Part shown: positions 7,233-21,730 of the stretch, one piece after another
Layout of the letters: every line of letters starts with the position of its first letter
Position numbering within the stretch: the first letter of the stretch is position 1
Assembly (NCBI GenBank): GCA_023229365.1
Contig: JALNZK010000002.1
Coordinates: forward strand, 318,343-340,072
From: Pseudomonadota bacterium
GTDB lineage: Bacteria > Myxococcota_A > Polyangia > JAAYKL01
Direction: 5' to 3'
Length of the DNA stretch: 21,730 nucleotides
Program-made: the position numbers and the translations under genes
Notes under the pieces: model-generated
Seen by the model: only the letters and a program-made list of their open reading frames with translations
What the model was told of the DNA's origin: nothing
Database searches by the model: none

Positions 7233-7877
7233 CTAGTGCATTGCACTAATGTGTAAGTCACGCAGGGTAATGGACCATGATTGATGCCGTGGCGATGATG
7301 CCAAGAAGAAATCAAGGATTTCCTCTGAGGCTGCCGCTACTGTCAACATGATGATGTTACGAGCCAAGGGATAGTCGCAAACGTCGCCACCGCTGTCCTT
7401 TGGCACCTTGTAGCGATCATCCCATACAACCTCGCCATAATCTTCAAATAATCCAGTGTGCAGACATGGAATCTTCTTTGCCCGGCAATGGGTTTGAACA
7501 ATTTGCCGTGCAGCATTATTATCAAAACAATCCAACACCAATGCTGAGCCACGCAGCATTTTATCCACGGTAGCGGCGGTCAATTCCTTGTCCACGGTGT
7601 CAATTTCAACACCAATGTTGCCAAACACCTTCTGTTTGGCGGCGGCAACTTTCAAAGCTCCAACATCCCGCTCATTCCAAAACTGGGTGTTTAGATTATG
7701 AGTATCGACACGATCTTTGTCAATACCACGGAGATTGGCAAATCCTTGTCGAGAAAGATTGTCAAGCAAATTGCTACCCAGGGCTCCTACACCACAAATG
7801 GTGATTAGACCTTGCAATTTCTTGGCATAATCCTTGCCTCGGTAAATTTCTTCATGATGGAATTTATTCGTTGCCAT
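7233..7877 (-). CDS. ThiF/MoeB/E1-like adenylyltransferase (short, 214 aa)
   Basis: Rossmann Gly loop ICGVGALGSNL. GIDKDRVDTHNLNTQ (compare the ThiF/E1 D.D.V..SNL.RQ pattern). LDCFDNNAARQ. Cys in GGDVCDYP. SD ggaggaagaaaATG. Confidence 0.88.
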   Translation of the reverse strand: MATNKFHHEEIYRGKDYAKKLQGLITICGVGALGSNLLDNLSRQGFANLRGIDKDRVDTHNLNTQFWNERDVGALKVAAAKQKVFGNIGVEIDTVDKELTAATVDKMLRGSALVLDCFDNNAARQIVQTHCRAKKIPCLHTGLFEDYGEVVWDDRYKVPKDSGGDVCDYPLARNIIMLTVAAASEEILDFFLASSPRHQSWSITLRDLHISAMH

Positions 7878-8097: not shown

Positions 8098-8661
8098 TCA
8101 CTTGGGTTTGTCTGTTTCAATTTCATTCGCCACCTCTTCGCTCTCTAGGAGAGCACCCAAATTAATTGCAGAGTCTTGATCCCAATCAATGGCATGCCCC
8201 CCAAGCTCAACCTCTTCATCAAATAATGTCAAGTCATCCTCCACAACGACATTAGGTGTTGCCAAGCCATAGCAAGCCAGTGGCTTTTTGGGTGTAATTC
8301 CTACAATTAGTTGCCCAAAGCTCTTTAGAGTACGAATGGGAATTGGAGGTTGTTCATCGCTGTAATACAAATAACCCTTGAGCCCATTGACTCCTTCGAT
8401 CAAACAAACGAGAGGCTTGCCAAACGACAACACCCACTGTGCCATTGTAGCATCATCCCGTGGGCTTGGGGAGGCGATCATTCCGGGGTGCGTGTGATAA
8501 AACCCAACCACATCCCCATATTTTTCTTCACGATCCATGACCCACTTATATGGAAAATCCACGGAGCCAGGGTGCCCTTCGCTTTCGTGCGAAACATGAC
8601 CCCACCACATTCTCCTGTGATTTCCGCCCGTCAAAATCCACGATTGTTCATTTTGTCTCAT
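8098..8661 (-). CDS. JAB/MPN (JAMM) metalloisopeptidase
   Basis: Complete JAMM motif HTHPGMIASPSPRD (HxHx7Sx2D) with upstream acidic residues. The ATG directly abuts the upstream stop (TAAATG). Confidence 0.9.
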   Translation of the reverse strand: MRQNEQSWILTGGNHRRMWWGHVSHESEGHPGSVDFPYKWVMDREEKYGDVVGFYHTHPGMIASPSPRDDATMAQWVLSFGKPLVCLIEGVNGLKGYLYYSDEQPPIPIRTLKSFGQLIVGITPKKPLACYGLATPNVVVEDDLTLFDEEVELGGHAIDWDQDSAINLGALLESEEVANEIETDKPK

Positions 8662-9177
8662 TTATTTTTCCCTTAGTCGTTTTATTGCTTCTTGACGTTG
8701 TTCTCGGGTTTGTTCTTCTAGTTCTTGAGTAAACAATTTCCCGCTCATGTAATATTCTGTACCCCAAGCTGGGCACATTTTGTGTAATTCAGGACGACCA
8801 CAACCAGGGCACACACAATCTTTTGACTCTTCTATGTCCCAGTCCATTGACTCTACAATTTCTTTCACATTCTCTTCGATAAATTTCTCACAAGCCTCTG
8901 GACCAATAGCTTCTCGCAATGCAGCAAACGGATTGCCTGTCGCTGCCCAGCGTGCCTCTTCTTCTTCCCAACACTCGTTTTGTCCACACTCTTTAACCTG
9001 ATCCCACAACAAAGCAACGGATGGGTGTTTGTCTTCTTCCCAATCACCACGTTCCAAAAATGCACAATAGCCGTCTTCTTGTTCAGCGTGGTCGGGGTGC
9101 TTGCTCCAATAAGGGCAAATGCCATTTGTATCATAGCAATATATTCCCTTCGGAATTAAACTCGGGTCTTTATTCAT
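8662..9177 (-). CDS. Cys/Trp/Glu-rich hypothetical protein (171 aa), probable metal-binding
   Basis: Start set at the ATG at 9177 (MNKDPS...), which forms an ATGA overlap with the GIY-YIG stop. Cys clusters: YCYDTNGICPYW...GYCAF and CVCPGCG...MCPAWG. Confidence 0.6.
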   Translation of the reverse strand: MNKDPSLIPKGIYCYDTNGICPYWSKHPDHAEQEDGYCAFLERGDWEEDKHPSVALLWDQVKECGQNECWEEEEARWAATGNPFAALREAIGPEACEKFIEENVKEIVESMDWDIEESKDCVCPGCGRPELHKMCPAWGTEYYMSGKLFTQELEEQTREQRQEAIKRLREK

Positions 9178-9893
9178 AATGTTTTCTTTTCCAACACTTT
9201 CCAATTTTTGTAATGTGCGATTTTGCCAGCAGCTACACTCCACATATGCCCAGAATTCAAATTGTGTTCCCTTGAAAACTGCTCCAAATTACTTGTCTCG
9301 AATACTTCTCCATCTGGCGATGCTATTTTGTATGCGAATTTCAATTTTTTGTTTCGCATTTTTTCTTTTGACTTATCCGAATACTTTCTTCCTGTGGCTG
9401 ATTTGGCAATTTTGTTTTTGTGTTCCTCTGTAAGCGTTTTGCCAGTGTTAAATAGCGATAACTTCTTTTTTGTTTTATTGCTTACTTTGTGTCCTAAATG
9501 ACTCGATCTAAGCTTTTTAATTGTTGCTTGGGTTACTTTTTTCCCTTTGTTGCCGATGGATATTTTGCGTTTAACCTCCTCAGATATTACGCCTCGGGCA
9601 TTTCCAAGTTTTAAATTATAACCATTTGGAGAAAGGGTTTTTAATTCACAGCCCCAATACACTTCCCTGGCATCTATTTCTTCTTGTGTGCCATTTAATT
9701 TTTCTAACACCACAATCTTAAAATGTTCTGGTCCGTATTTTCGAATGGCAAGGACAATCGGCATTAGTTTGGTGTTATTCCACCTTGCCTCCGCACAGTG
9801 TCTTTTGAACCTTTCTTCTGCCGTTTTCCAAGTTTGCCCAACATAGACCTTTGCATTAAGATCATTTATTATTTTGTATATAATTGCTTCCAT
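9174..9893 (-). CDS. GIY-YIG homing endonuclease (I-TevI/Seg-like) with NUMOD3-type repeats
   Basis: IIYKIINDLNAKVYVGQT (GIY...YIG), R/H/E core, NGYN. C-terminal repeated S.GNKGKK / SSHLGHKVS / NTGKTLTEEHKNKI DNA-binding motifs. Confidence 0.9.
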   Translation of the reverse strand: MEAIIYKIINDLNAKVYVGQTWKTAEERFKRHCAEARWNNTKLMPIVLAIRKYGPEHFKIVVLEKLNGTQEEIDAREVYWGCELKTLSPNGYNLKLGNARGVISEEVKRKISIGNKGKKVTQATIKKLRSSHLGHKVSNKTKKKLSLFNTGKTLTEEHKNKIAKSATGRKYSDKSKEKMRNKKLKFAYKIASPDGEVFETSNLEQFSREHNLNSGHMWSVAAGKIAHYKNWKVLEKKTL

Positions 9894-9945: not shown

Positions 9946-10401
9946 TTATAATTTGTCAAATTGGTCTCTGATCTTCATTAGAAGTTTTCCAAGATGGTTT
10001 TCCCCAACTCCGTTGCATACCCCAAAAAACGTGTCGTGCCACCAATTTCCTTCTACTAATTCCGCCTTGCCAGTGGCAAGAAGCTGATTGCATAATTGTG
10101 GATCGGAGAATTTTTGCACAAGCAAATCTTCCATAATCCCTAAATTAATATTTTGCCAATCGGGTCGTTGGTGTCCAGCTTTTTTGAATACAGCCGCAAG
10201 CTTCTTTGCTTTTCCAGGGGTAATAGCGTCTTGAATTTGCTTACGCAATGCCGGGTCTAAAAATTTAGCAGCTTGGTAAGCGTGTTCGGTGGAAATATAT
10301 TTTTCACCATCCAAAACTACCGGCGTGGACAGTATGGCAAAATTCGACAAATACCTGTATTCACCATCAAATGAATCAATTTTTGTTTGCTTGTCATTCA
10401 T
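9946..10401 (-). CDS. NADAR (YbiA/DUF1768) domain protein
   Basis: FDGEYRYLSNF, YISTEHAYQAAKF, GNWWHDTFFG and GENHLGKLLMKIR match the NADAR signature. Confidence 0.88.
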   Translation of the reverse strand: MNDKQTKIDSFDGEYRYLSNFAILSTPVVLDGEKYISTEHAYQAAKFLDPALRKQIQDAITPGKAKKLAAVFKKAGHQRPDWQNINLGIMEDLLVQKFSDPQLCNQLLATGKAELVEGNWWHDTFFGVCNGVGENHLGKLLMKIRDQFDKL

Positions 10402-10634
10402 TTTTTCTTTTCTTTCTTTTCAAGCTTTTTCAATGAATGTGCCAAATCCATTGAATTTGTTACTTTTCTCACTCCCTTTTTAAATTGTTTCAATTCTTCA
10501 CGCAACCGAATCACTTCTGCCTCCATGACCTGTGCTTTGCAACCATAGTCATACAAAACACCAGCGGTTGGCTCTGCCTTATTGACAGCATTCCAAAACT
10601 TGCGGGAGGCATTTCCAGAAAATATTTTTTTCAT
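10398..10634 (-). CDS. Hypothetical coiled-coil protein (~78 aa)
   Basis: Start placed at the ATG at 10634 (TAATG coupling to the upstream stop) rather than 10649. Lys-rich C-terminus. Confidence 0.5.
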   Translation of the reverse strand: MKKIFSGNASRKFWNAVNKAEPTAGVLYDYGCKAQVMEAEVIRLREELKQFKKGVRKVTNSMDLAHSLKKLEKKEKKK

Positions 10635-11122
10635 TACATTTCTGTCCACGATTTCAAAGGTGGTGCTACCAACATCTTTACAAACATCATGATTGTTCCG
10701 TAGACCACATCATCCTTGGTGAAATTAAATCTTTTCATTGCCTCATCATTCACCCATTCCATCAAGGAAGTGGCCCTTTCCTCGGAACGGGTCTTCCAAT
10801 CACACACCAACTCGGCAAGATAAATGCGGGGCATTCCTTTAATTCCGCCATCCCAATATTCTGGGTGGTGTTTATTCGTATGATTGTGCTGCATAATAGC
10901 GAGTTTCAAGGCAGCCTTATCTGGATTCTCTATTGATAAATGATCCCATTCAGCACCAAAAAACTTGCTATTATCGTGAAGAAAAGAATTTGCCACCAGC
11001 GTTTTGGCAAGCTTAAACTCTCCATTCTCCATCAGTCTTTCAGCAAGAATTACGCAATTCTCCTGAACACCGTGAATGTGCCGCATCAGTTTTTGAATAC
11101 GATCAATATCACGCTGACTCAT
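10634..11122 (-). CDS. HD-motif protein (putative metal-dependent phosphohydrolase-like; resembles phage DUF5662-type proteins from memory)
   Basis: H...HD pattern (HIHGV...FLHDNSKF), HNHTNKHHPEYW, AELVCDW. Start at 11122 preferred (ATGA coupling with the upstream 50-aa ORF); 11170 is the alternative. Confidence 0.5.
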   Translation of the reverse strand: MSQRDIDRIQKLMRHIHGVQENCVILAERLMENGEFKLAKTLVANSFLHDNSKFFGAEWDHLSIENPDKAALKLAIMQHNHTNKHHPEYWDGGIKGMPRIYLAELVCDWKTRSEERATSLMEWVNDEAMKRFNFTKDDVVYGTIMMFVKMLVAPPLKSWTEM

Positions 11123-11271
11123 TTCTTTTCTTGCTCCTTTTGCTTCTGTTCGATAATATAATTTCGACACCTTTCCAGTGCTTGATAATAAAGCAATTGG
11201 GAAAGTGGATCAACAGTATCTTGCAGACCTTTTGCACAAGCCAATTCGTGATTGTATTCTATTTCAGTCAT
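11119..11271 (-). CDS. Possible small ORF (50 aa)
   Basis: Manual translation: MTEIEYNHELACAKGLQDTVDPLSQLLYYQALERCRNYIIEQKQKEQEKK. It fills the gap between 11278 and 11122 with an ATGA overlap. Confidence 0.35.
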   Translation of the reverse strand: MTEIEYNHELACAKGLQDTVDPLSQLLYYQALERCRNYIIEQKQKEQEKK

Positions 11272-11277
11272 GATTTA

Positions 11278-12225
11278 CTAATCGTCGTCGTCGTCGTCGT
11301 AATCGTGCTCTGGCTCGTTGCCACGATTATGGCCGTATTGATTCCAATACCACGTATCACGACCAGAGGTATCTACAATATGGTCACGGCGGTGTCCCTC
11401 TCGGATAACACCTACTAGACTTTGAAGATCAAAGTTACGGTCATAGCCCGACAAACAAATACCAGCAGAAATTACTGATAAAGTTTTTTTGTCAACAACT
11501 GAACGATGAGGGTTTCCATCGATTTGATATTCAATAGTGAAACTGTCTCCACGCTCAATGTGGCTTTTATAATCAGCACCAGCACGCTCTAGGGCAACTT
11601 TGATACGATTGCCTGCCTGTGCCATCTTGGCTTCTTCGCTGGCTTCATAGGCGACCTTATAAGCGATTTGGTATGCATCCAATTCTTGCTTGGAAACAAT
11701 ATCCAAATCCAGCTTCTCTGGCTTGGCCAATGTAGTCAACATTTCTCGCAAATATGCTCCGCTTTTCGGACTTTTGCGAGGGTCTACTTCATCAAACCAA
11801 CAAATCTGTCCATCGAAACGAGCACAAACAGTATCAAACAATTGCACTTCCTCAGACAAATAAATCGGCACGGACCCAGAAATGTTAAATCTGGCATCTG
11901 CCTGAGCAAGGGTTCCATACCACAAATCTTTATTTTGATGGTGCAAAATAAATTTCATAGTAGGAAACAATGCCAAGTATTGTCTTCGCTCCATCATGGA
12001 CGGGGCACGCACATGTTTGGCCAAACGACGGGTGGTAGGCTTGAAAACACCCCAACCCTGAAAATTCACAGGCACTACACGCATTTCCATCACAATGCCA
12101 GAAATACGAACTCTGACCGCTCGCCCCTTGAGCACAGGGGACAAAAACTCTGATTGAAGGAATTGATCTTCCTCAGCGGCGAGCTTATCGATCAGACTGT
12201 GAATATTCGTTTTCTTTTTTTTCAT
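11278..12225 (-). CDS. Hypothetical protein (315 aa) with a C-terminal hexa-Asp tail
   Basis: Start set at the ATG at 12225 (MKKKKTNIHS), directly after the upstream stop (TAACATG). Ends ...EHDYDDDDDD. No motif recognised. Confidence 0.7.
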   Translation of the reverse strand: MKKKKTNIHSLIDKLAAEEDQFLQSEFLSPVLKGRAVRVRISGIVMEMRVVPVNFQGWGVFKPTTRRLAKHVRAPSMMERRQYLALFPTMKFILHHQNKDLWYGTLAQADARFNISGSVPIYLSEEVQLFDTVCARFDGQICWFDEVDPRKSPKSGAYLREMLTTLAKPEKLDLDIVSKQELDAYQIAYKVAYEASEEAKMAQAGNRIKVALERAGADYKSHIERGDSFTIEYQIDGNPHRSVVDKKTLSVISAGICLSGYDRNFDLQSLVGVIREGHRRDHIVDTSGRDTWYWNQYGHNRGNEPEHDYDDDDDD

Positions 12226-12226
12226 G

Positions 12227-12610
12227 TTATTCGATAGCTTCTGTCTGCCCGCTGCCGTTTTTTCCTGCGTCCCAGCCCGCTCCATTGATTTCTTTGGGTG
12301 AATGCAGATGAATTGTCATCGTTAAATAGTAACTTGTGGCAATAGTTCCTTCCATCCACACTTTTTCATTTTCCCTGACATCAAAAACAAATTTTACATT
12401 GTCTGCACACACCGGGTAAGTGTGCATTTTCCCATTAATTAGGAAGGAATATCGGGATGGCTCATGCATCAAAACACGGTCAATGTTTTTTAATTTGCTA
12501 TAATGCGGCTCAGGAGAGCATCCGGCAAGGAGCAAAACAAAAAATAAAAACCATTTCAAATGAATTAACCAGGACATTTTCTGAAATCTCCGTAAGAACA
12601 TTCTCCGCAC
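12227..12610 (-). CDS. Putative lipoprotein
   Basis: Hydrophobic signal followed by the lipobox LLLAGC|S (WFLFFVLLLAGCSPE). The start is ambiguous (12610 or 12577). Confidence 0.7.
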   Translation of the reverse strand: MRRMFLRRFQKMSWLIHLKWFLFFVLLLAGCSPEPHYSKLKNIDRVLMHEPSRYSFLINGKMHTYPVCADNVKFVFDVRENEKVWMEGTIATSYYLTMTIHLHSPKEINGAGWDAGKNGSGQTEAIE

Positions 12611-13122: not shown

Positions 13123-14691
13123 CTACGCAACTTTTCTCTTCGGCAAAGGCCAACTCATGATTTCCATGAGCAAGTCAAGCTTACTGGGCTTGCACAGGAA
13201 TTTCACCAGTCCAGGCAAGCTGTAGTAGTCGCCGGTAAATTGCCAAGCGTCTACTTCGATGCCTTTGACTCGACCTTCTTGCTCCAATTGATCCGTAGCA
13301 TTAGGAGTCTTGACAATGCAAATGTTGGGGAATGCATTCAAGGCTTGACAGTATTTTTGATAAATGTCAAAGAACTTGGGAGCAGTATTTTCCCCTTCAT
13401 CCGTTACCAAAATGATCTGTTCGACCATGTATTTCTTTTGTAGCATAAACTGCAAGCCAACGCCGCAGGAAGTCCAACCGCTTGCACGGATGCCTTCAAA
13501 TGCTTTCTCCCAAGCTGCCAAGTCTTTTCCTTGGCTAGTGATGGGATAGGCGATTGTATCTTGAGCATACGCATACAAAGGAACACCATCCTCCATAACC
13601 GTAGACAATAGGGAGCCAATTCGCTTGCCCAATTCAATGGTAGCGGCTTGAGAACCCGACTTGTCCACAAACAAAGCCGTGGGGCGACTGATACGACCCT
13701 TGGACTTAATTTGTTGGTCAGCAACGGCTTCCAATTGTTGCTTTACTTCATCCGAAACTCCAGGTGCCGCCTTGACGGCTTCCAAGGATTTCAATGCAGC
13801 CATTCGCTTATCGCCCTTGGCCACAACAAGTTTTTCCTCAATCAATTGCTTGAGATCGGGGTTGTCGAACACGCCACGCTTTTTCAAGCTGCCGATGCTG
13901 TTGACCAACTCTTGCGAAGTCATTACTTCCAACAAAGCCGCAATAACAGGCGGTGTCATGGATTCGATTACCGTACTGGCAATCCGGTACGGAATTTTAT
14001 TTTCCACGATCACTCGGGCTTGGTCAGTCGGTGAAGTTGCCTTGGCCAACTCCTTGATTAGGAACGCTTTGGAATCAGCAGGCGGCTTATCATCGAACAA
14101 CACGGCTTGAGCCCGGTCGGTCGGCTTGCGGTGTCCGAAAGCATACAAACTCTTCATATATTTTCGAGCACCAACGCAGACACTATCGAACCAATCTTTA
14201 TCCAATTCTCGCTCTTGCAGATAACGATTGATTTCCGTCATTACGGAATTGGGCAATTGTCGGAACAAGCCCGTTTTGACTTTCTTGGCAGGAGCAGCCG
14301 GTTGTGCCGGTGCGGCAGCAACTCTACGACCCCGAACCATGCGTGCGGGTGCCGGTGCGGCAGCCTTCGGCTTTCGTTCGGTGATATAGTTGCCCAAAAT
14401 GAACTTCAATACCCGTGTCAATTGATAGGGCGGAAGCTCACGCAACATGGCCAAACCAACTTCTCGGTGCCCGTCAAACTTGGACAGACACAAAGAAATA
14501 ATAAACATTTCTTTGTGGTCACGAATTTCGCCGGTATCATTATACCAAGCCGCCAATTGCGAATAGAACCGAGGATCATCGGTAATCATTCGCTGGTGTT
14601 CTGGATAAATAGCGGCCAGATCACGGTGAGGCGTGGTCAATAGAGTGTTGAGAATTCGGAGTCGCACATCTTGTTCGGTATTTTCGTTCAT
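13123..14691 (-). CDS. Ro60/Rsr-like protein: helical-repeat (TROVE-like) N-terminal region plus C-terminal vWA domain (522 aa)
   Basis: C-terminal vWA with MIDAS FVDKSGSQ (DxSxS), ASGWTSCG and ILVTDEGEN, in the same order as human Ro60 VDVSASM / GGTDCS / IVFTDNET (recalled). The N-terminal helical segments RDHKEMFIISLCLS and REVGLAMLRELPPYQLTRVLKFI parallel Ro60 KQEPMLFALAICSQ and [24 protein letters not shown]. Total length is close to Ro60 (~540 aa). Start moved to 14691 (MNENTEQ, SD aaagggatatgaaATG) because the ATG at 14727 lies inside a structured RNA element. Ala/Pro/Arg-rich insert KPKAAAPAPARMVRGRRVAAAPAQPAAPAKK. Confidence 0.65.
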   Translation of the reverse strand: MNENTEQDVRLRILNTLLTTPHRDLAAIYPEHQRMITDDPRFYSQLAAWYNDTGEIRDHKEMFIISLCLSKFDGHREVGLAMLRELPPYQLTRVLKFILGNYITERKPKAAAPAPARMVRGRRVAAAPAQPAAPAKKVKTGLFRQLPNSVMTEINRYLQERELDKDWFDSVCVGARKYMKSLYAFGHRKPTDRAQAVLFDDKPPADSKAFLIKELAKATSPTDQARVIVENKIPYRIASTVIESMTPPVIAALLEVMTSQELVNSIGSLKKRGVFDNPDLKQLIEEKLVVAKGDKRMAALKSLEAVKAAPGVSDEVKQQLEAVADQQIKSKGRISRPTALFVDKSGSQAATIELGKRIGSLLSTVMEDGVPLYAYAQDTIAYPITSQGKDLAAWEKAFEGIRASGWTSCGVGLQFMLQKKYMVEQIILVTDEGENTAPKFFDIYQKYCQALNAFPNICIVKTPNATDQLEQEGRVKGIEVDAWQFTGDYYSLPGLVKFLCKPSKLDLLMEIMSWPLPKRKVA

Positions 14692-14716: not shown

Positions 14717-14797
14717 AGCCCATCCAAGTCTGGTCAGCTTTGATTGGAAACGATATGGAAGTTTCTGTTTGTAAGCTGGGCCGGTATGGGATGGGCT
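14717..14797 (-). ncRNA. Y-RNA-like module 0 (minimal: conserved stem motif closed by a ~35-nt insert, no tRNA-like domain)
   Basis: 9-bp terminal stem agcccatcc/ggatgggct. Carries both conserved strands (minus sense 5' ..CCCAUACC..CAGCUUACAAACAG and 3' GCUGACCAGACUUGGAUGGG). Followed on the minus strand by AUUUUUAUUU. Confidence 0.55.
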
Positions 14798-14815
14798 TGT
14801 TCTGTTGTTTTGTTT

Positions 14816-15046
14816 TTAGCCGAAAACTGCCTCCGGTCGGAGTGTAAGGGTGTTAGTTTCACCATTACGATCAACAGCAAAAGCCCGTAGCTTCCCTTGA
14901 GGGATGCCTAGCCAATCGGCGGCAGCATTGCGGATATCGGCATCCGAGCTATTGTCGCCAATATTCAGTTCCGCCAAGGGAACGTCGTAAGACCTTCCTT
15001 CGACTCGAACGTGCAGCATGTTTTCAAGTTGGTTTTCGTTGTCCAT
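14816..15046 (-). CDS. Small beta-grasp/ubiquitin-like candidate (76 aa) ending in Gly
   Basis: Strong SD (aaggagaaattacgATG) and its own promoter. Ubiquitin size. Predicted strand-strand-helix-strand pattern (MLHVRVEGRSYDVPL / SDADIRNAAADWLGI / LTLRPEAVFG). The terminal residue is Gly, directly before the stop. Confidence 0.4.
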   Translation of the reverse strand: MDNENQLENMLHVRVEGRSYDVPLAELNIGDNSSDADIRNAAADWLGIPQGKLRAFAVDRNGETNTLTLRPEAVFG

Positions 15047-15089
15047 CGTAATTTCTCCTTATATCGTTCGTTCGTCTTTCACTTTCCCT

Positions 15090-15117
15090 ATTATACTTCA
15101 GAAATTTGAGTTGTAAA
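15090..15117 (-). promoter_or_regulatory. Sigma70-like promoter (TTTACA-N16-TATAAT) for the 76-aa ORF and Ro60-like gene
   Basis: Minus strand: tttaca(15117-15112)-16 nt-tataat(15095-15090), ~45 nt upstream of the ATG at 15046. Confidence 0.6.
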
Positions 15118-15127
15118 CAAGAAAAAA

Positions 15128-15253
15128 TCCGTCCAAGTTACAAAAACTGTTTTTGGTAAACAATGCAGGAATTGAACCAGCATTCTTCAGTTTTCAAGAC
15201 TGACGCTCAACCATTGAGCTAATTGTTTGTAAGTTTTAGTGGTATGGGACGGA
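15128..15253 (-). ncRNA. Y-RNA-like module 1: conserved stem motif flanking a complete tRNA
   Basis: Terminal stem tccgtcc(15128-15134)/ggacgga(15247-15253). The conserved 5' and 3' motif strands bracket the tRNA at 15154-15228. Confidence 0.6.
15154..15228 (-). tRNA. tRNA or tRNA-like, anticodon UGA, class I (short variable arm), CCA encoded
   Basis: Minus sense: AAACAAT-TA-GCTC-AATGGTT-GAGC-G-TCAGT-CTTGAAA-ACTGA-AGAAT-GCTGG-TTCAATT-CCTGC-ATTGTTT-A-CCA. U8, A14, G18G19, U33 and the T-loop TTCAA are present. One T-stem mismatch. A Ser-type anticodon without the long variable arm is anomalous. Confidence 0.55.
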
Positions 15254-15256
15254 AAG

Positions 15257-15385
15257 TGGAGGGTGTTGGATTCGAACCAACATTTTTTCGTTTTCAGTGA
15301 AAAAAGTTACCTTTTGTTTGTATGTCTCTCAGGTGTGGGACAATTGCTTGTCCAAGTTTGGGAAACTGAACGTTTTTAACCCTCC
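15257..15385 (-). ncRNA. tRNA-like RNA (anticodon loop CUGAAAA, GAA/Phe-type) with the conserved stem-loop inserted in the D-loop (module 2)
   Basis: 7-bp acceptor GGAGGGT/ACCCTCC. T arm GTTGG-TTCGAAT-CCAAC. Anticodon arm present. The D region is replaced by ...GTTCAGTT[motif hairpin, loop AGCAAUU]...AAGGTAAC. No CCA. Confidence 0.55.
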
Positions 15386-15395
15386 AAAGTATCAG

Positions 15396-15522
15396 CGGGG
15401 AAGATGGGATTCGAACCCATAATTTTTCCTTAACAGGGAAACTTTTACCAATTGTTTGTATGTCTCTCAGGTGTGGGATGGTCGCCCATCCAAGTTTGGG
15501 AAACTGAACTTCTAACTTCCCC
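15396..15522 (-). ncRNA. tRNA-like RNA (anticodon loop CUGUUAA, GUU/Asn-type) with the conserved stem-loop inserted in the D-loop (module 3)
   Basis: Perfect acceptor GGGGAAG/CTTCCCC. T arm ATGGG-TTCGAAT-CCCAT. Anticodon stem TTTCC/GGAAA. D region ...GTTCAGTT[hairpin closed by GGAUGGG-CGA-CCAUCC]...TTGGTAAAAG. Confidence 0.55.
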
Positions 15523-15612
15523 ATGTGCCCGGTTTATAATTCTCTGCCTGCAACCGGAAACCCGGCAGAAAAGCCTCCAGTTATTGGTTTATCCCAAGAG
15601 GCGAGTAATCAG

Positions 15613-15738
15613 ACCCGGTGGTAGGAGTCGCACCTACAATCTTTTCCTTAGGATGGAAACGCTGTTTGTACGTCTCTCAGGTTTGGGATAATTTCTTATC
15701 CGAGTTTGGGAAACTGTTTGCTGTTTAGCTTCACCGGG
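15613..15738 (-). ncRNA. tRNA-like RNA (anticodon loop AUCCUAA, CCU/Arg-type) with the conserved stem-loop inserted in the D region (module 4)
   Basis: Acceptor CCCGGTG/CACCGGG. Anticodon stem TTTCC/GGAAA. Non-canonical T-loop TGCGACT (G at position 55). 3-bp D-stem GCT/AGC enclosing the motif hairpin (loop GAAA). Confidence 0.5.
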
Positions 15739-15743
15739 ATATT

Positions 15744-15902
15744 CATAAGGCAAACATTTGATCGTCCAAGTCGAAGAAACTGTTTTTTGCAACAATGTTG
15801 GATTCGCACCAACTACCGAAACTTTATGGAAGTTTTGCTCTACTGATGAGCTAATTGTTTGTAAGTTCCGTCAGTATGGGACGATCAAATGTTTGCCTTA
15901 TG
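15744..15902 (-). ncRNA. Y-RNA-like module 5: 24-bp perfect terminal stem plus conserved motif flanking a degenerate tRNA-like domain (CAU loop)
   Basis: cataaggcaaacatttgatcgtcc(15744-15767) is the exact reverse complement of 15879-15902. The inner tRNA-like domain (15789-15860) has a D-loop ATCAGTA lacking GG, anticodon loop UCCAUAA (C33) and T-loop TGCGAAT. Confidence 0.6.
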
Positions 15903-15913
15903 TTGATTTTACC

Positions 15914-16090
15914 GACGCAAGCAAGTGTTGGCCCGTCCAAGTCGAAAAAGCTGTTTCACATAGTGACAGTTTAATAGACTGTTGCCTTTACCATTAGGCT
16001 AAAACACATTTTGGCGTGTTTGTTGGATTCGAACCAACAGATTGTTTGTAAGCTCTGTCTGTGTGGGACGAGCAAACACTTGCCTGCGTC
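15914..16090 (-). ncRNA. Y-RNA-like module 6 with a circularly permuted tRNA-like domain
   Basis: Long imperfect terminal stem 15914-15938/16066-16090. Minus-sense order: motif 5' strand, T arm (GTTGG-TTCGAAT-CCAAC, 16022-16038), loop-capped helix AAACAC/GTGTTT (16002-16021), D-like arm with GG (15984-15999), ACAGT-CTATTAA-ACTGT (15966-15982), motif 3' strand. Confidence 0.6.
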
Positions 16091-16092
16091 AA

Positions 16093-16260
16093 CATCATCA
16101 AGCTTCCGTCTGTCCAAGTTGAAGAAGCTGTTCAACTTTTGACAGTTCCAATTACTGGTGCCTGACCGTTAGGCTACATTCCTTGCGGAATGATGGGAGT
16201 CGAACCCACTTATTTGTTTGTAAGCTCCGTCTGTATGGGACAGACGGAAGCTTGATGATG
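16093..16260 (-). ncRNA. Y-RNA-like module 7 with a circularly permuted tRNA-like domain and a GNRA-capped acceptor-like helix
   Basis: 23-bp perfect terminal stem 16093-16115/16238-16260. T arm 16193-16209. CATTCC-GCAA-GGAATG hairpin 16177-16192. D-like GCCT-AACGGTC-AGGC 16160-16174. CAGT-AATTGGA-ACTG 16143-16157. Confidence 0.6.
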
Positions 16261-16295
16261 TTTACAACTCAAATTGTCAAAGAACACAAAATTGG

Positions 16296-16384
16296 CTATC
16301 CAAGTTCATAGAGGGGAGAACATTCAAATCTCCCCCTTCAAGCGGGGGAGAAAGTCGTTTGTAACCTCTATAGGTTTGGGATAG
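16296..16384 (-). ncRNA. Y-RNA-like module 8: conserved motif enclosing a GC-rich hairpin instead of a tRNA-like domain
   Basis: Terminal stem ctatcc/ggatag. Internal helix AUAGAGG/CCUCUAU. Insert hairpin TCTCCCCC-GCTTGAA-GGGGGAGA. Confidence 0.5.
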
Positions 16385-16475
16385 CAAGGGGAGCCGTTGG
16401 AGTCGAACCAACAAAACCACAAGCCCCGTCTTTCAACACTATACGCTGAATACCGTATTGCGGTTCATTCAGTAT
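16385..16475 (-). ncRNA. 5' leader of the RNA array: stem-loop plus a tRNA T-arm/minihelix-like element
   Basis: Minus sense from the predicted TSS: hairpin CTGAAT-GA-ACCG-CAATA-CGGT-ATTCAG (about 16447-16473). Then GGGG...GTTGG-TTCGACT-CCAAC(16396-16412)...CCCC. Confidence 0.4.
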
Positions 16476-16480
16476 GATCT

Positions 16481-16508
16481 ATTATACGCCTTTTTTATTC
16501 CCTGTCAA
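16481..16508 (-). promoter_or_regulatory. Consensus sigma70 promoter (TTGACA-N16-TATAAT) driving the RNA array
   Basis: Minus strand: ttgaca(16508-16503)-16 nt-tataat(16486-16481). It points into 16475..15128, where no protein-coding potential is apparent. Confidence 0.65.
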
Positions 16509-16542: not shown

Positions 16543-16782
16543 TTATTCTTCCCGCATGGCTTTTAATGCCGCCTGGGAAATTTCAATTCCCCGAAAAAAT
16601 TCCTGCAAATGTTCGTCATTCTCGCCCAGGTTGAAGTCAGCCTCATGAAGAATTTCCCCATGAACAAAGGCGTTGTGTACGCCAGTCATAATGTACCGTG
16701 GATCGGCTTGTGCTTCAACTACAAGCATTCTAATGAAATGCTCGACTACTTCGTGGGTTTGTATTTGATCTGCTGTCATCAT
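16543..16782 (-). CDS. Hypothetical acidic protein (79 aa)
   Basis: SD ggaggaaaATGATG. Promoter immediately upstream. Protein-like helical sequence. Confidence 0.6.
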   Translation of the reverse strand: MMTADQIQTHEVVEHFIRMLVVEAQADPRYIMTGVHNAFVHGEILHEADFNLGENDEHLQEFFRGIEISQAALKAMREE

Positions 16783-16796
16783 TTTCCTCCACCGCC

Positions 16797-16824
16797 ATTA
16801 TACTTCAGCTTTCTGGTTTGTAAA
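16797..16824 (-). promoter_or_regulatory. Sigma70-like promoter (TTTACA-N16-TATAAT)
   Basis: Minus strand: tttaca(16824-16819)-16 nt-tataat(16802-16797). The predicted TSS falls at or next to the SD of the 79-aa ORF, giving a very short leader. Confidence 0.5.
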
Positions 16825-16891: not shown

Positions 16892-19240
16892 ATGGAAATT
16901 AAAGGTGCATTTAAGGCCGAAACGATTGTTGCTGGCAATATTAATTATTCAGCAGATACTGGGGCTGCCAACGCTTATGTTGTAAGCTTGGGTTTAAATT
17001 ATTTATTTATAGGGCTGCCGGTTTCTTTCAAAGCCTCTCATGATAATACAGGTGCGTCAACTTTAAAAGTTGATAGTCTGCCTGCTGTTGCTATTAAAAA
17101 AAATGTAAGTGATGCCCTGGATATGGGCGATATCAAAACAGGACAAGTCATCACTGTTATTTATGATGGAATATATTTTCAAATAGCAAGTGCCCTTGGC
17201 TCAGGTATTAGCGGATATTCTGGCTACTCTGGAATTGGTATTAGTGGGTATAGCGGATATTCAGGTGACTCAGGCATTAGTGGGTATAGCGGATATTCAG
17301 GTGACTCAGGCATTAGTGGGTATAGCGGATATTCAGGTGACTCAGGCATCAGTGGATACTCAGGATACTCAGGATCAGGCATCAGTGGATATTCAGGATA
17401 CTCAGGATCAGGCATCAGTGGATATTCAGGATACTCAGGATCAGGCATCAGTGGATACTCAGGATACTCTGGAACCACAAATATATATTTGGGAAATCCA
17501 ACGACTGGCGATTACCTAGATGGGTTATTTCCCTGGGAACCCAATGTAACTTTGATTGCTGATGCCGAACAAGAAGTAAATGAAGTATTAGCTGCATTAG
17601 CACCCGCACCAGCACCCAATTTTTCGACATATAACAATGCCCAAACAACAGGAGCAACAGGAAAACTAAGTTTTGATGGATCATATCCCATAGGCGGTGT
17701 ATCGAACGTAGATGGCATTGGCAATTGCACATCTGTCGCTGTCGATGGTGCATTTACTTATAATGCTTTAAGCGGCATGCGAAGAGGTGTTTTTAGTTCC
17801 ACAACAACAAGTTTTACAGGACAATTGGCATCTAATATTGTTGCAGAACCGAATGGAGCATATCTTCAATATGCTTTTATTGACGGTGACACAGGAATTC
17901 TAAGTATATATGTCAATAATGATGTAACACCAAAACATACTGTTGATTTATCAATATTTAGTTCTGGAAGCTCTCTGAATGGCAATGGCACCGGGTTTAC
18001 AAGTATATCAGCAGTAACCTATGAAAAATTTCCTAATGGCAGTGATTTTACATTATTTGTTTATAGGACAGCACAATGGGTGGTCAATACCGCTGATTGC
18101 AGAGAAGGTTGGAATTGGGTGCGTATTACCCATACCGTAGGAACAGATCGCCCGCCCACCAATCTTTATTGCGATTTTATTCGTGACCTAAATACTACGA
18201 CCACGACTTTTTCTGCGGACACGCTTACAGGATTTACTGGCAGTGGATCAAAATATTTGTCGGGAGTAAATTATTATACGGGTGGATCGGCAACTTATGC
18301 CGCAACAATCAGCAATCTTTACAGAAACACATGGTATACAGGATCAGATGCTATTGCTTACAGCTTTAACAGCACCCCTTTACAAGCATTGACAAATGAA
18401 TCTTTGGGCAATTCAGGAGGGGATGAAGCACTAGATGTAACTAAATCAAAAACAGTAAACATTACTTCATCCAGCACCAGACTAAATCCCACTGCTGGAC
18501 ATACCATTAGTGTTAGAACAACTGCAAAAAGGACTGTGCAATCTACTCAATCTTCATCCTATCGATCTATCACAGATATACTTCTTGATAATTTTGTTGC
18601 CTCATCTACCGTTACTGCTGAATATTTTGACGATGAGACTTATAGATTGCCATCAAATTCAGATTTTGACAACGACGCTACAGCCGTCACTAGTTCGTGG
18701 ACATCATCTAATACCATTGCTGATGCTGGTAGTGCTGGATACAACGATGGAACACAAACATATAATGGCACACTTGTGTATCCAACAATGAATTTCTCAA
18801 CCATAGCCAATGGTCCCGCTGGAAACGTTAACTACTCCACAGGTATATCTGGTGAACGTTGCTATTATAGATTTTTTGACATGTTAACCACAGCTAGGAG
18901 CAATTTTACACTTACGGTAAATGGAGCGTCAATAACACCAATATCAAATGGAACGGCTTTTTCTACAACAAGTCAAATAAAAATAGATATTAAGCTACCT
19001 AATGATGGTGGAGAAGGCACTGGTTGGCTAGATGTAACTGCATTGTTCGCAACAGCCCATTGGTCAGACGGTGACGGATGTTTGTTATCAGGAACATTTT
19101 CTATGAATTCTGCCATGTCAATAACTGTTGGCACAAAATCTACGGGAGCCGCAAGTGTTAATGGCAAGGTATTTTTAAGAATTAGAGTTCCTAGTGGATG
19201 GATTAGAAATTTGACTAGTATTACATTGGTTGGAGCATAA
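16892..19240 (+). CDS. Tail fibre protein with an internal (G-x-S/GYS) repeat stalk (782 aa)
   Basis: The N-terminal segment ADTGAANAYVVSL...FKASHDNTGASTLKVDSLPAVAIKK matches the widespread tail-fibre N-terminal pattern (NAY.v.l....F.a...NTGa.TLnv.gl.a..i). A 92-aa SGYSG repeat follows, then a long Ser/Thr/Asn-rich beta-type C-terminal region. Confidence 0.8.
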   Translation: MEIKGAFKAETIVAGNINYSADTGAANAYVVSLGLNYLFIGLPVSFKASHDNTGASTLKVDSLPAVAIKKNVSDALDMGDIKTGQVITVIYDGIYFQIASALGSGISGYSGYSGIGISGYSGYSGDSGISGYSGYSGDSGISGYSGYSGDSGISGYSGYSGSGISGYSGYSGSGISGYSGYSGSGISGYSGYSGTTNIYLGNPTTGDYLDGLFPWEPNVTLIADAEQEVNEVLAALAPAPAPNFSTYNNAQTTGATGKLSFDGSYPIGGVSNVDGIGNCTSVAVDGAFTYNALSGMRRGVFSSTTTSFTGQLASNIVAEPNGAYLQYAFIDGDTGILSIYVNNDVTPKHTVDLSIFSSGSSLNGNGTGFTSISAVTYEKFPNGSDFTLFVYRTAQWVVNTADCREGWNWVRITHTVGTDRPPTNLYCDFIRDLNTTTTTFSADTLTGFTGSGSKYLSGVNYYTGGSATYAATISNLYRNTWYTGSDAIAYSFNSTPLQALTNESLGNSGGDEALDVTKSKTVNITSSSTRLNPTAGHTISVRTTAKRTVQSTQSSSYRSITDILLDNFVASSTVTAEYFDDETYRLPSNSDFDNDATAVTSSWTSSNTIADAGSAGYNDGTQTYNGTLVYPTMNFSTIANGPAGNVNYSTGISGERCYYRFFDMLTTARSNFTLTVNGASITPISNGTAFSTTSQIKIDIKLPNDGGEGTGWLDVTALFATAHWSDGDGCLLSGTFSMNSAMSITVGTKSTGAASVNGKVFLRIRVPSGWIRNLTSITLVGA
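17198..17473 (+). repeat. Coding tandem repeat: 36-nt unit x3 (GISGYSGYSGDS) then 33-nt unit x3-4 (GISGYSGYSGS)
   Basis: Direct reading of 17198-17473. All three forward frames and the reverse frames stay open here, which produces spurious ORFs. Confidence 0.9.
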
Positions 19241-21730
19241 ATGGCGTTATCAACAGACACAATGGCCCAAATGGCATTAAAGTTCCTCTTAGGTAAGAGT
19301 GATACTAATTATGCACAGAAAGGACCAAACAATGAGGCTGAAGCTTACAACATTGTTGTTGATGGCACTAAAGTCTGGACAGATAGTGTTCCAGGCACGG
19401 CTCCTGTTGGTGACACGAGTGTTATTTATTGTCTGGATGGAGTGACGCACGCTCAGGCTGTCCTTACAGCCGATCCAACATCTAATGGGCAAGCATTTTT
19501 TGCCACATATCCAGCAGGAGAGATGTCTTATCCGCCTGGAATTTCTGCTGGAGACAGAGTAAAAAATGCCATTCCTCCGTCTTATGGAACAGACTATGAA
19601 GGAAAACCATACGCCGGGGCCACACTCATTCCTCCTGGAGATGGAAGAGATTGGATTTATCAATATGAATCTGGTGTGTTTTTTCAAGAAACCGCCAGTG
19701 CCCCACCAACTCCAACCTCTATTAAGATTTATGTTTATATAGGGAAAACTGTAGCTACGGGCGGCTACAGTGGATATTCTGGAATCAGCGGTTACTCAGG
19801 ATCAGGAATTAGTGGCTACAGCGGTTACTCAGGCATTAGTGGTTACTCTGGTTCTGGTGTCAGTGGCTACTCAGGATATAGTGGTTCAGGCATTAGTGGT
19901 TACTCTGGTTCTGGTGTCAGTGGCTACTCAGGGAAAAGTGGATACTCAGGCTCAGGCATCAGTGGCTACAGCGGTTATAGTGGTTCAGGCGTTAGTGGTT
20001 ACAGCGGTTACTCAGGGAAAAGTGGGTACTCAGGCTCAGGCGTTAGTGGTTACTCAGGATCAGGCATTAGTGGATACTCTGGCTCAGGTGTCAGTGGTTA
20101 CTCAGGATATAGTGGGTATTCAGGGAAAAGTGGATACTCTGGAATTAGTGGATACTCTGGATCGGGCATTAGTGGCTACAGCGGATATAGTGGAATTAGC
20201 GGCTACTCGGGCATCAGTGGATATAGTGGAATTAGCGGCTACTCGGGCATCAGTGGATATAGTGGAATTAGCGGCTACTCGGGATATAGCGGTTACTCAG
20301 GATATAGTGGTTCAGGCATTAGTGGATACTCTGGCTCAGGTGTCAGTGGTTACTCGGGATATAGCGGTTACTCAGGATATAGTGGTTACTCAGGTATTAG
20401 TGGATACTCAGGCTCAGGCATCAGTGGCTACAGCGGTTATAGTGGTTCAGGTGTTAGTGGCTACAGTGGTTATAGTGGTTCAGGTGTTAGTGGCTACAGT
20501 GGTTATTCAGGCGTTAGTGGTTATTCAGGTTACTCAGGTTCAGGTGTCAGTGGCCACAGCGGAATTAGCGGCTACTCGGGCATTAGCGGCTACTCGGGCA
20601 TTAGTGGTTACTCGGGCATTAGTGGTTACTCGGGCATTAGTGGTTACTCGGGATATAGCGGTTACTCAGGAAAAAGTGGATACTCAGGCATTAGCGGTTA
20701 CTCAGGATCGGGCATCAGTGGTTACTCAGGATATAGCGGTTACTCAGGGAAAAGTGGATACTCGGGCATTAGTGGTGACTCGGGCATTAGTGGTTACTCG
20801 GGCATTAGTGGGTACTCGGGCATTAGTGGGTACTCGGGCATTAGTGGTTACTCGGGCATTAGTGGGTACTCGGGCATTAGTGGTTACTCGGGATATAGCG
20901 GTTACTCAGGATCGGGCATCAGTGGTTACTCAGGATATAGCGGTTACTCAGGGAAAAGTGGATACTCGGGCATTAGTGGTTACTCAGGTTCAGGTATTAG
21001 TGGATACAGTGGTTATTCAGGCATTAGTGGTTATTCAGGCATTAGTGGTTACTCGGGCATTAGTGGGTACTCGGGCATTAGTGGGTACTCGGGCATTAGT
21101 GGGTACTCGGGCATTAGTGGGTACTCGGGCTCAGGTGTCAGTGGTTACAGCGGATACTCAGGAGAGCCAGCACCATATTTGTATTTATATAATTCAGCCC
21201 ATACCAGCACCCCTGGTGCTGGTCATTTCTCCGCAGATGATGTATTAACAGATGCTACCGTTGTATACATTTCATCAATAGAGTTTCATACTACCGATGT
21301 TTATATGTTTTTTAACCTTATGAAGGTTGGGGATCAAATAAGGATTACAAATCTCAATAATAAGGCATTATACTTTGGTTTTAACATCATAAGTATTGAT
21401 AGTTCAGTCAGTGATGTTATCGCACTGGGTGTGAATACGGGGCCTTTTAGCGGAGGGTTTAGCCCAGGATTTGATGGGTCTTTTGGTGGTACTGGATTCA
21501 GCGACAATGATTTGGTTGAAATTTCATTGCAAGTCATAGGAGTTTCAGGCTACTCAGGCGTTAGTGGTTACTCGGGATATAGTGGCTCAGGCATCAGTGG
21601 TTATTCTGGCATTAGTGGGTACTCGGGTTACTCAGGCTCAGGCATTAGTGGATACTCTGGATCGGGCATCAGTGGCTACAGTGGTTATTCAGGGAAAAGT
21701 GGATACTCTGGAATTAGTGGATACTCTGGA
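19241..21730 (+). CDS. Second tail fibre-like protein, 3' end outside the window (>829 aa), dominated by (S/G)YSG repeats
   Basis: The ATG at 19241 abuts the TAA of the upstream gene. Manual translation: MALSTDTMAQMALKFLLGKSDTNYAQKGPNNEAEAYNIVVDGTKVW...IKIYVYIGKTVATGGYSGYSGISGYSGSG.... I followed this frame through the ~125-aa non-repeat domain (EPAPYLYLYNSAHTSTPGAGHF...LVEISLQVIG) and into a second repeat block without meeting a stop. Missing from the ORF track because it has no stop in the window. Confidence 0.8.
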   Translation, partial: MALSTDTMAQMALKFLLGKSDTNYAQKGPNNEAEAYNIVVDGTKVWTDSVPGTAPVGDTSVIYCLDGVTHAQAVLTADPTSNGQAFFATYPAGEMSYPPGISAGDRVKNAIPPSYGTDYEGKPYAGATLIPPGDGRDWIYQYESGVFFQETASAPPTPTSIKIYVYIGKTVATGGYSGYSGISGYSGSGISGYSGYSGISGYSGSGVSGYSGYSGSGISGYSGSGVSGYSGKSGYSGSGISGYSGYSGSGVSGYSGYSGKSGYSGSGVSGYSGSGISGYSGSGVSGYSGYSGYSGKSGYSGISGYSGSGISGYSGYSGISGYSGISGYSGISGYSGISGYSGISGYSGYSGYSGYSGSGISGYSGSGVSGYSGYSGYSGYSGYSGISGYSGSGISGYSGYSGSGVSGYSGYSGSGVSGYSGYSGVSGYSGYSGSGVSGHSGISGYSGISGYSGISGYSGISGYSGISGYSGYSGYSGKSGYSGISGYSGSGISGYSGYSGYSGKSGYSGISGDSGISGYSGISGYSGISGYSGISGYSGISGYSGISGYSGYSGYSGSGISGYSGYSGYSGKSGYSGISGYSGSGISGYSGYSGISGYSGISGYSGISGYSGISGYSGISGYSGISGYSGSGVSGYSGYSGEPAPYLYLYNSAHTSTPGAGHFSADDVLTDATVVYISSIEFHTTDVYMFFNLMKVGDQIRITNLNNKALYFGFNIISIDSSVSDVIALGVNTGPFSGGFSPGFDGSFGGTGFSDNDLVEISLQVIGVSGYSGVSGYSGYSGSGISGYSGISGYSGYSGSGISGYSGSGISGYSGYSGKSGYSGISGYSG
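19760..21163 (+). repeat. 1.4-kb coding array of imperfect 9/15/18-nt-based repeats encoding ~468 aa of G-[YIVKSD]-S triplets with frequent GS phase shifts
   Basis: Direct reading: GYSGYSGISGYSGSGISGYSGYSGISGYSGSGVSGYSGYSGSGISG...GKSGYSG.... A second block resumes at 21539 and runs to the window end. Confidence 0.9.

Follow-up and report, generated by a model that had tools for sequence, protein, structure and literature searches.

The minus strand of the 21,730-nt stretch analysed here (the window, from contig JALNZK010000002.1) carries nine copies of a structured repeat between positions 14717 and 16385, directly followed by a gene for a protein of 522 aa. We consider it probable that the nine repeats form an array of Y-RNA-like noncoding RNAs that belong with this protein, a divergent member of the Ro60 type encoded downstream on the same strand. 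The conservation of Ro60 and its Y RNAs extends from bacteria to humans. To our knowledge, their roles in bacteria and phages are poorly understood, and the known examples are proteins that standard TROVE models detect. The system in the window looks like a separate branch of the Ro60/Y-RNA family, in which a diverged Ro60 occurs together with a co-diverged docking stem in large phages and in several bacterial phyla. All features of the array are on the minus strand, and all positions are those of the window.

Each copy is built from a terminal helix (P1), a conserved asymmetric internal loop, a second helix (P2) and a UACAAAC junction. A regular-expression scan for the 5' half (UCCCAnAC + 9 nt + N + UACAAAC) finds exactly nine on the minus strand, with the first U of UACAAAC at 16363, 16222, 16050, 15863, 15670, 15460, 15322, 15231 and 14773 for modules 8 to 0. 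The nine 3' halves (ACUYGGA) are located at 16305, 16119, 15942, 15771, 15705, 15495, 15357, 15138 and 14729. A script that pairs the halves reproduced, letter for letter, the nine copies and the P2 strand pairs of the original prediction, which had been made from the sequence of the window. The internal loops, given there as CA[U/C/A]AC and ACU[U/C], are correct as well, the C, A, A, C of the first and the A, C, U of the second being invariant in the nine copies. A candidate K-turn (kink-turn) in the internal loop was ruled out by eye, as tandem G.A pairs are absent.

Other details of the helices need revision. P2 had been described as a helix of nine positions, but position 1 is unpaired in 7 out of 9 copies, so P2 consists of two pairs, a mismatch and five pairs. 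Position 4 lacks pairing in 8 out of 9 window copies, exactly as claimed. As a trait of the whole family this mismatch does not hold, since the position is paired in 78% of the modules outside the window; it is lineage-specific, and Planctomycetes carry the mismatch one position further along. The long P1 extensions of modules 5-7 are present, although not all of them reach the 23-25 bp assigned to them: module 5 has 24 bp and module 7 has 25 bp, both perfect, and module 6 has about 21 bp, interrupted by a single mismatch and including two G.U pairs. At the junction, UACAAAC is conserved, whereas the ACAG proposed to precede the 3' strand of P2 is found in 5 out of 9 copies only (UCAG in two) and is not conserved across the wider family.

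The nine copies do not share one common layout either. Six are open stems, a layout in which the partner strands mostly lie 25-110 nt apart (25-29 nt at the closest) and enclose structured cargo. Modules 2-4 are capped hairpins: the order of the strands is reversed, with the 3' half 44 nt upstream of the 5' half, and the halves are linked by a 6-bp P1 with a GNRA cap (GAAA, GCGA or GCAA). The P1 sequences differ between these three copies (AUAA/UUAU, AUGG/CCAU, ACAA/UUGU). We also tried to read modules 2-4 as open stems; in this reading the 3' half at 15705 and the 5' half at 15340 are left without partners and there is no acceptor stem. The capped reading is preferred because of the GNRA loops, the covarying 6-bp P1 and the perfect 7-bp acceptor stems described below. 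Since modules 2-4 share identical P2 sequences, the window holds only six independent versions of P2.

The helices covary within the window. In an alignment of the nine stems (A2, 68 ungapped columns with an artificial GAAA linker) 80.1% of the helix cells pair, compared with 65.3% in shuffled alignments, and none of 500 shuffles reaches 80.1%. When the partner strand is slid by 1-3 columns the pairing falls to 30-40%. The first P1 pair is G-C in five copies and A-U in four, and the P1 extension covaries too. In P2, positions 2, 3, 5 and 8 show changes on both sides, in agreement with the original prediction.

The same holds outside the window. Among 139 modules from 45 unrelated loci, 81.6% of the cells are paired, against 33-43% for slid partners, part of this percentage arising by construction, as the module-finding script required some pairing. 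Multiple pair types occur at nearly every position; the third P1 pair, for instance, is A-U in 53, C-G in 39 and G-C in 31 modules. The P1 extension, which was not used in module selection, pairs far above permutation (z up to 13.7). Because the finder demanded some pairing, the test was repeated on capped hairpins for which sequence anchors and pairing in P1 were the sole selection criteria. With this P2-free selection, position 2 pairs in 0.80 of the hairpins (0.42 when permuted), position 3 in 0.90 (0.51) and position 8 in 0.93 (0.67), while position 4 pairs in half of them and position 1 in 17%. A control in which P2 positions 1-6 were shuffled or swapped was uninformative, as the conserved anchors still find the true partner and 3 out of 6 chance pairs pass the filter; it was replaced by partner permutation and by the choice of modules without use of P2. 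The expectation that both strands are co-conserved in homologues is thus borne out, with strong covariation of both helices outside the window.

The structure is also recovered from scratch. RNAalifold returned P2, the internal loop and P1 on 27 contiguous hairpins, with compensatory changes in 10 out of 13 pairs. A covariance model (R1) built from these 27 real contiguous capped hairpins gave 75 matches at E <= 1e-3 across 99 loci, many of them beyond the training set, and all 75 are on the strand of the Ro60-like gene. A script scan of 791 kb found 150 modules on the gene strand and none on the opposite strand.

These numbers bear on the possibility that the copies are repeats at the level of DNA, such as targets of recombination or of homing endonucleases or a small mobile element, and that the helices are palindromes without a role in RNA. 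The repeat is indeed multi-copy, and homing endonuclease genes are present in the window. However, copies that differ in sequence keep their pairing through changes on both sides, and in most open modules the partner strands are separated by 25-110 nt of structured cargo. Equal counts on the two strands are not seen; the bias is absolute, 150 to 0 for modules and 75 to 0 for matches to R1. Moreover, G.U cells outnumber A.C cells (217 vs 108 in the outside modules), and the T-loop and tRNA features occur in a single orientation. We give a DNA-level repeat next to no chance, as the covariation and the absolute strand bias speak for its exclusion. The earlier claim of an RNA rather than a DNA repeat is supported by the compensatory changes, the strand bias and the excess of G.U.

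The gene downstream of the array (13123-14691, minus strand) is predicted to encode a Ro60-type protein, with a TROVE ring of helical repeats followed by a vWA domain with a DKSGS MIDAS motif (metal-ion-dependent adhesion site). The AlphaFold2 (AF2) model, obtained from an alignment of 27 sequences, has a predicted local distance difference test (pLDDT) score of 80.5. The best 13 fold matches in the PDB are all full-length Ro60 chains (human, Xenopus, Deinococcus and the phage phiLo), with TM-scores of 0.52-0.63 and E-values from 1e-10 to 3e-7; the identity to phiLo Ro60 is about 14%. The MIDAS motif is invariant among the homologues (D343, K344, S345, S347). More than 1700 homologues are present in the database, and some of them match Pfam vWA_Ro60, weakly. 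The protein is without a match in NCBIfam, PHROGs and PADLOC, and for the neighbouring genes at 11278-12285 and 12227-12610 nothing usable was obtained from Pfam, PHROGs, NCBIfam or PADLOC.

The modules are strictly co-located with this gene. Using the protein we fetched 80 bacterial loci, mostly from Planctomycetota and in addition from Chloroflexota, Cyanobacteria and Abditibacteriota, 15 loci from IMG/VR, many on contigs of 85-570 kb, and four closer metagenome relatives. Complete modules, 150 in total and up to 12 per locus, were found in 45 out of 95 loci encoding homologues of the protein. The word TACAAAC has 235 occurrences on the gene strand and 29 on the opposite strand. Where both flanks are available (59 loci), 90 out of 112 modules are located within 2 kb upstream of the gene and 60 out of 112 within 1 kb; in some bacterial loci modules are also found downstream of it.

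The association is also found when starting from the RNA. A scan of IMG/VR for the capped hairpin gave 44 matches, four of which pass both checks (at least 6 of the 9 P2 pairs, and UACAAAC), and all four are in loci encoding the Ro60-like protein. A fifth match, L138, has seven P2 pairs and the variant junction UACAACC, and there is no Ro60-like gene within its 5.3-kb locus. An exact-pattern scan of IMG/VR with the 5' half from the window gave 28 matches, of which 27 have no partner strand and are due to chance. From the co-location and the analogy with Ro60/Y RNAs we infer that the conserved stem is a putative docking site for the Ro60-like protein. The original prediction of a protein recognition element tied to a TROVE gene is supported indirectly, by the predicted Ro60 fold, the clustering within 2 kb and the co-occurrence in IMG/VR.

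Distant homologues of the protein (Chloroflexota loci L063, L065, L066 and L070, cyanobacterial loci L090-L107) are often without modules by the strict definition, and T-loop words are present in them. The Chloroflexota loci also have stems of a related kind (for example GCGUACCC...AGAAGCUUACAAAC), which are in another register. The RNA family is therefore probably wider than counted here.

The position of the modules would also suit a different function of the stem, that of a cis-acting operator. Binding of the Ro60-like protein, or of another factor, to module 0 would control translation or termination of the Ro60-like gene itself, and the other copies would be titrating decoys or duplications without a role. 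Module 0 stops 26 nt short of the start codon, a module lies directly upstream of the gene in three relatives (L110 at 3805, L124 at 3816, L128 at 1228), and more than half of the modules in the loci with both flanks are within 1 kb upstream (the 60 out of 112 given above). What this leaves unexplained are the arrays of up to 12 modules with structured, covarying cargo. Most copies in the window are moreover upstream of a separate promoter-like site and of a separate small gene, and the modules downstream of the gene in bacterial loci do not fit either. As an explanation of the whole array we regard the operator as improbable; for module 0 only, an autoregulatory role is plausible.

Known Y RNAs adjoin the Ro60 gene on its own strand, and those of bacteria and phages contain a mimic of tRNA; the Y-RNA stem has a conserved interruption that is bound by Ro60 (PMC4201824). 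The array resembles YrlA, which is found with Rsr/Ro60 (RF02553; Chen et al. 2014, PMC4201824), in many respects: small RNAs beside a Ro60-type gene on the same strand, RNA ends that pair as a stem with a conserved internal loop, a tRNA mimic in the middle, and occurrence in phages. A same-strand Ro60 gene within a few kb, as is characteristic of YrlA, is present here too, the array ending 26 nt upstream of the gene with the Ro60 fold. The YrlA domain order of T arm, capped acceptor-like stem and D arm is seen in modules 6 and 7 and in the Planctomycete modules, while the other seven modules of the window are arranged otherwise or have no tRNA-like part. The Rfam YrlA model partially matches module 7 with 27.7 bits (16160-16209, model positions 31-81, covering the T arm, the capped stem and the D arm). 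Planctomycete modules match the YrlA core with 41.2 and 35 bits, and the outer stem is never matched.

There are also clear differences from YrlA. The stem here is C-C/A-N-A-C opposite A-C-U-Y, with UACAAAC, and not GNCGAAN0-1G, which near the 5' end of YrlA is the proposed Rsr site (PMC4201824). Three additional arrangements are found (the cloverleaf inside the stem, the capped stem at the place of the D arm, and the plain hairpin), the partner protein has diverged beyond the reach of Pfam TROVE, and a locus can hold up to 12 copies, compared with the two upstream RNAs of phage phiLo (PMC12135203). In this Thermus phage, Ro60 binds two Y-like RNAs, Yrl1 and Yrl2, encoded just upstream (PMC12135203; PDB 9KOP, 9L5Y). 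The two systems thus have in common a phage-encoded Ro60 homologue and Y-like RNAs just upstream of it, and phiLo Ro60 is the only PDB sequence that our protein family matches at the sequence level. Unlike the nine RNAs of the window, which are mostly tRNA-like and carry another motif, the two phiLo RNAs were found through a CGAA motif.

In metazoan Y RNAs the Ro-binding helix contains GGUCCGA (quoted in PMC4201824) and a bulged C. The stem described here is likewise a terminal stem with a conserved asymmetric interruption, and its 5' strand GUCC-C-A resembles GGUCCGA by eye, partially. The second helix and the junction differ, and the cargo here is tRNA-like, not a pyrimidine-rich loop; the Rfam model Y_RNA (RF00019) has no match in the window even at E <= 10. 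The 3' strand ACUUGGAC presumably resembles the ACUUGAC of human Y1. In the literature we found no account of the protein family, the motif, the array size or the permuted arrangements, a search that leaves room for a prior mention.

According to our analysis, 7 out of 9 stems bear a tRNA cloverleaf or a permuted or altered tRNA-like domain, and the other two (modules 8 and 0) bear a plain hairpin. Modules 1 (15128-15253) and 5 (15744-15902) are open stems around a tRNA cloverleaf, identified by Rfam, ARAGORN and folding. The cloverleaf of module 1 (15154-15228, anticodon UGA) scores 69.9 bits and that of module 5 (15789-15860, anticodon CAU) 46.3 bits, above the Rfam tRNA (RF00005) threshold of 29 bits, while the other modules are below it with 17-27 bits. 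In both, the 5' strand of the acceptor is the AAACAAU of the conserved junction. The cloverleaf of module 1 is followed by an encoded ACCA, and a long variable arm is absent.

In modules 6 (15918-16086) and 7 (16091-16262) the open stem encloses a permuted domain, seen in the predicted fold of module 6 and in the minimum free energy (MFE) fold of module 7. The order is T arm, capped acceptor-like stem, D arm and anticodon-like arm, and the cap in module 7 is GCAA. Modules 8 (16295-16385) and 0 (14717-14797) have no such domain. Module 8 is an open stem around a plain hairpin, with P1 GCUAUCC/GGAUAGC, loops CAAAC/ACUU and P2 CUAUAGAGG/CCUCUAUGA; module 0 is an open stem (AGCCCAUCC/GGAUGGGCU, with P2 CGGCCCAGC/GCUGACCAG) that has a short hairpin insert.

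Modules 2-4 are different again. Seven bases upstream of each capped hairpin pair perfectly with the seven bases that follow the downstream T arm, and an anticodon-like arm lies between. This makes them tRNA-like RNAs that hold the conserved hairpin in the region of the D arm, and not stems bearing the RNA ends. The first, tRNA-like A (15613-15738), contains module 4 (GAAA-capped hairpin at 15672-15714, 67.1 bits with R1, supported by folding); its acceptor of 7 bp is CCCGGUG/CACCGGG, and it also has a T arm and an anticodon-like arm. tRNA-like B (15396-15522) contains module 3 (GCGA-capped hairpin at 15462-15504, R1 69.1 bits), with the acceptor GGGGAAG/CUUCCCC. tRNA-like C (15257-15385) contains module 2 (GCAA-capped hairpin at 15324-15366, R1 74.4 bits), with the acceptor GGAGGGU/ACCCUCC, and all four of its helices are recovered by the MFE fold. 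Across loci, the acceptor stem is a perfect 7-bp helix in 22 out of 24 capped modules, and many different sequences form it.

By eye, GGUAAAG or a variant is seen 2-5 nt after UACAAAC in capped modules (window 15446-15452 and 15308-15313, minus strand; loci L110, L111, L117, L123, L124 and L126). It may be a stand-in for the G18-G19 of the D loop that contact the T loop in tRNA.

In several relatives, the modules and the Ro60-like gene have arrays of 9-25 ordinary tRNA genes directly upstream, on the same strand (L045 541-2935, L050 234-2059, L062 20-3120, L068 32-3184, L058 493-1506, L110 276-2527). These relatives are metagenome-assembled genomes (MAGs) of Phycisphaerae and Tepidisphaeraceae, Bythopirellula and one IMG/VR contig. 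Like the known dense same-strand runs of tRNA-shaped genes, the array has homing endonucleases nearby and links to mobile elements, and in several relatives the modules are directly preceded by 18-25 ordinary tRNA genes. Unlike in such runs, the units here carry a conserved stem, and most of them cannot function as tRNA.

Several results weigh against the assignment of the array to the Ro60/Y-RNA family. The threshold of the Rfam YrlA model (69 bits) is reached neither in the window nor in 11 related loci. The motif GNCGAAN0-1G is absent from all module stems, and its only two minus-strand matches are in or near a small open reading frame (ORF). The protein does not match Pfam TROVE, and there is no Pfam match at E <= 10 beyond noise. 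Its sequence homology to Ro60 is marginal and restricted to phiLo Ro60 (phmmer E 0.013, profile E 0.0012), so the Ro60 assignment rests on the predicted fold. Besides these points and the pairing demanded by the module finder, there is the chance that cloverleaf modules in which CCA is encoded are genuine precursors of tRNA.

Extended to all repeats, the last point becomes a model of processing cassettes that yield functional, if unusual, tRNAs. As the conserved leader/trailer helix, the stem would be a cleavage signal, the long P1 being cut by RNase III, followed by RNase P and 3' trimming; the products would be used in translation, and the Ro60-like protein would be at most a chaperone of the precursor. 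Such a model agrees with the scores of modules 1 and 5 above the Rfam tRNA threshold, with the perfect 24-25 bp P1 duplexes of modules 5 and 7, and with the arrays of ordinary tRNA genes in the relatives. Across the family there are 23 embedded cloverleaves with diverse anticodons, many with CCA encoded directly after the acceptor stem. The YrlA of M. smegmatis, too, can be cleaved by RNase P and receive CCA (PMC4201824).

However, most of the array does not fit a tRNA function. Two out of nine modules have no tRNA-like part, and, given the capped acceptor of modules 6 and 7 and the missing D arm of modules 2-4, five more cannot be tRNAs, which makes 7 out of 9 in all. The embedded cloverleaves use one common A/C-rich acceptor strand, derived from the conserved ACAAAC, whatever their anticodon. 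Bacterial tRNA-Leu and tRNA-Ser have a long variable arm, and identity features fitting the anticodon are missing here: the UGA (Ser) cloverleaf is 75 nt long with a short variable region, and a long variable arm is absent from the family cloverleaves with Leu or Ser anticodons (72-75 nt). Finally, the internal loops and UACAAAC are conserved in sequence beyond the needs of a duplex cleavage signal. We consider it unlikely that the repeats are tRNA cassettes.

We thus favour an array of Y-RNA-like RNAs with a Ro60-type partner, and the following mechanism is proposed for it. Each repeat would provide one protein-docking stem, composed of P1, the asymmetric loop, P2 and the invariant UACAAAC, fused to variable cargo in four arrangements: a cloverleaf (modules 1 and 5), a permuted, YrlA-like domain (modules 6 and 7), a capped hairpin replacing the D arm (modules 2-4) and a plain hairpin (modules 8 and 0). 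Transcription would start from two promoter-like sites, and the polycistronic RNA would be cut up; in modules 5 and 7, the perfect P1 of 24-25 bp would be a suitable substrate for RNase III. Known Ro60/Y-RNA particles suggest, by analogy, that the stem would bind to the outside of the Ro60-like ring, and tRNA-handling enzymes may be recruited or occupied by the tRNA-like part. In this way the phage would be equipped with several Ro particles that differ in their tRNA mimics.

The capped-hairpin model also spans the junctions of neighbouring open modules, at 16040-16136, 15853-15954 and 16213-16314 (minus strand), with 43, 35 and 26 bits. These matches consist of the 3' half of one module and the 5' half of the next, so that alternative pairing between modules in a polycistronic transcript is conceivable.

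Three near-consensus promoter-like sites of sigma-70 type, identified as consensus matches only, are located on the minus strand around the array. The first (16481-16508; TTGACA, 16-nt spacer, TATAAT; 12/12 consensus positions) is upstream of modules 8 to 1. The second (15090-15117; TTTACA, 16-nt spacer, TATAAT; 11/12) lies within the array span and precedes a small ORF, module 0 and the Ro60-like gene, while the third (16797-16824; 11/12) is ahead of an ORF of 79 aa (16543-16782, minus strand) just upstream of the array, which has no family match. In the leader, at 16388-16430 (minus strand), a T-arm-like hairpin, GUUGG UUCGACU CCAAC with GGGG/CCCC flanks, can be read from the sequence; it may represent a mini-helix of tRNA or what is left of another module. 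Between tRNA-like A and B, the spacer of about 90 nt (15523-15612, minus strand) contains a G+C-rich hairpin at 15544-15568 (CUGCCGG...GCAGGCAG), outside any module. No known ribozyme or riboswitch is matched by Rfam in the window.

The array span additionally holds a conserved gene of 76 aa (14816-15046, minus strand), which is not an RNA module and separates the main part of the array from the Ro60-like gene. It is found at the same position in L110, L124, L126, L127 and L128, its product always ends in RPEAVFG, and there are 11 homologues in the protein database. The predicted fold has two strands, a helix and two strands (pLDDT 79), and its best PDB matches are ubiquitin-like domains, without significance (E ~0.1). 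A ThiF/E1-like gene and a JAB-domain gene are located about 6-7 kb downstream (7233-7877 and 8098-8661, minus strand). The three genes could form a ubiquitin-like conjugation set.

The remaining genes of the window look phage-like. They include GIY-YIG/HNH and LAGLIDADG homing endonucleases and NADAR, DUF5662, NUDIX and CYTH genes (9174-9893, 9946-10401 and 10634-11170 on the minus strand; 3102-3635 and 3953-5109 on the plus strand). Downstream of the Ro60-like gene, the order DUF5662, NADAR, GIY-YIG is also found in the contig with the 95%-identical protein. Two ORFs on the plus strand (16892-19240 and 19770-21248) contain in-frame tandem repeats (17200-17473 and 19763-21730) with periods of 9-99 nt, rich in Gly, Ser and Tyr. 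The first of them has a weak match to collagen repeats, and the two may encode fibre or surface proteins. A megablast search of the whole window against the INPHARED phages gave no match, i.e. there is no close relative among deposited phage genomes.

These results concern a protein family that is invisible to Pfam, NCBIfam and PHROGs and has a predicted Ro60 fold, together with a companion RNA family that is invisible to Rfam. The putative docking stem is compact, about 43 nt, and well defined. As one stem occurs on permuted tRNA scaffolds, the family is a natural experiment that separates the protein handle from its cargo. The motif and the protein alignment would permit the annotation of hundreds of "hypothetical" loci, and the finding should interest those who study Ro60, Y RNAs, tRNA mimicry and large phages.

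The tie to tRNA arrays and to large phages suggests that the system takes part in the surveillance of tRNA during infection. A more far-reaching proposal, which we hold to be a long shot, is that of an uncatalogued family of Ro60 paralogues (more than 1700 proteins, in Planctomycetota, Chloroflexota, Cyanobacteria, Abditibacteriota and phage contigs of 85-570 kb) with a Y-RNA family of its own, the docking stem of which would have entered tRNA scaffolds at three different places. Phages may then use Ro particles with different anticodon loops to decoy host defences that target tRNA, or to repair the damage these cause. If true, this would link the biology of Ro60 to the struggle between phage and host over tRNAs.

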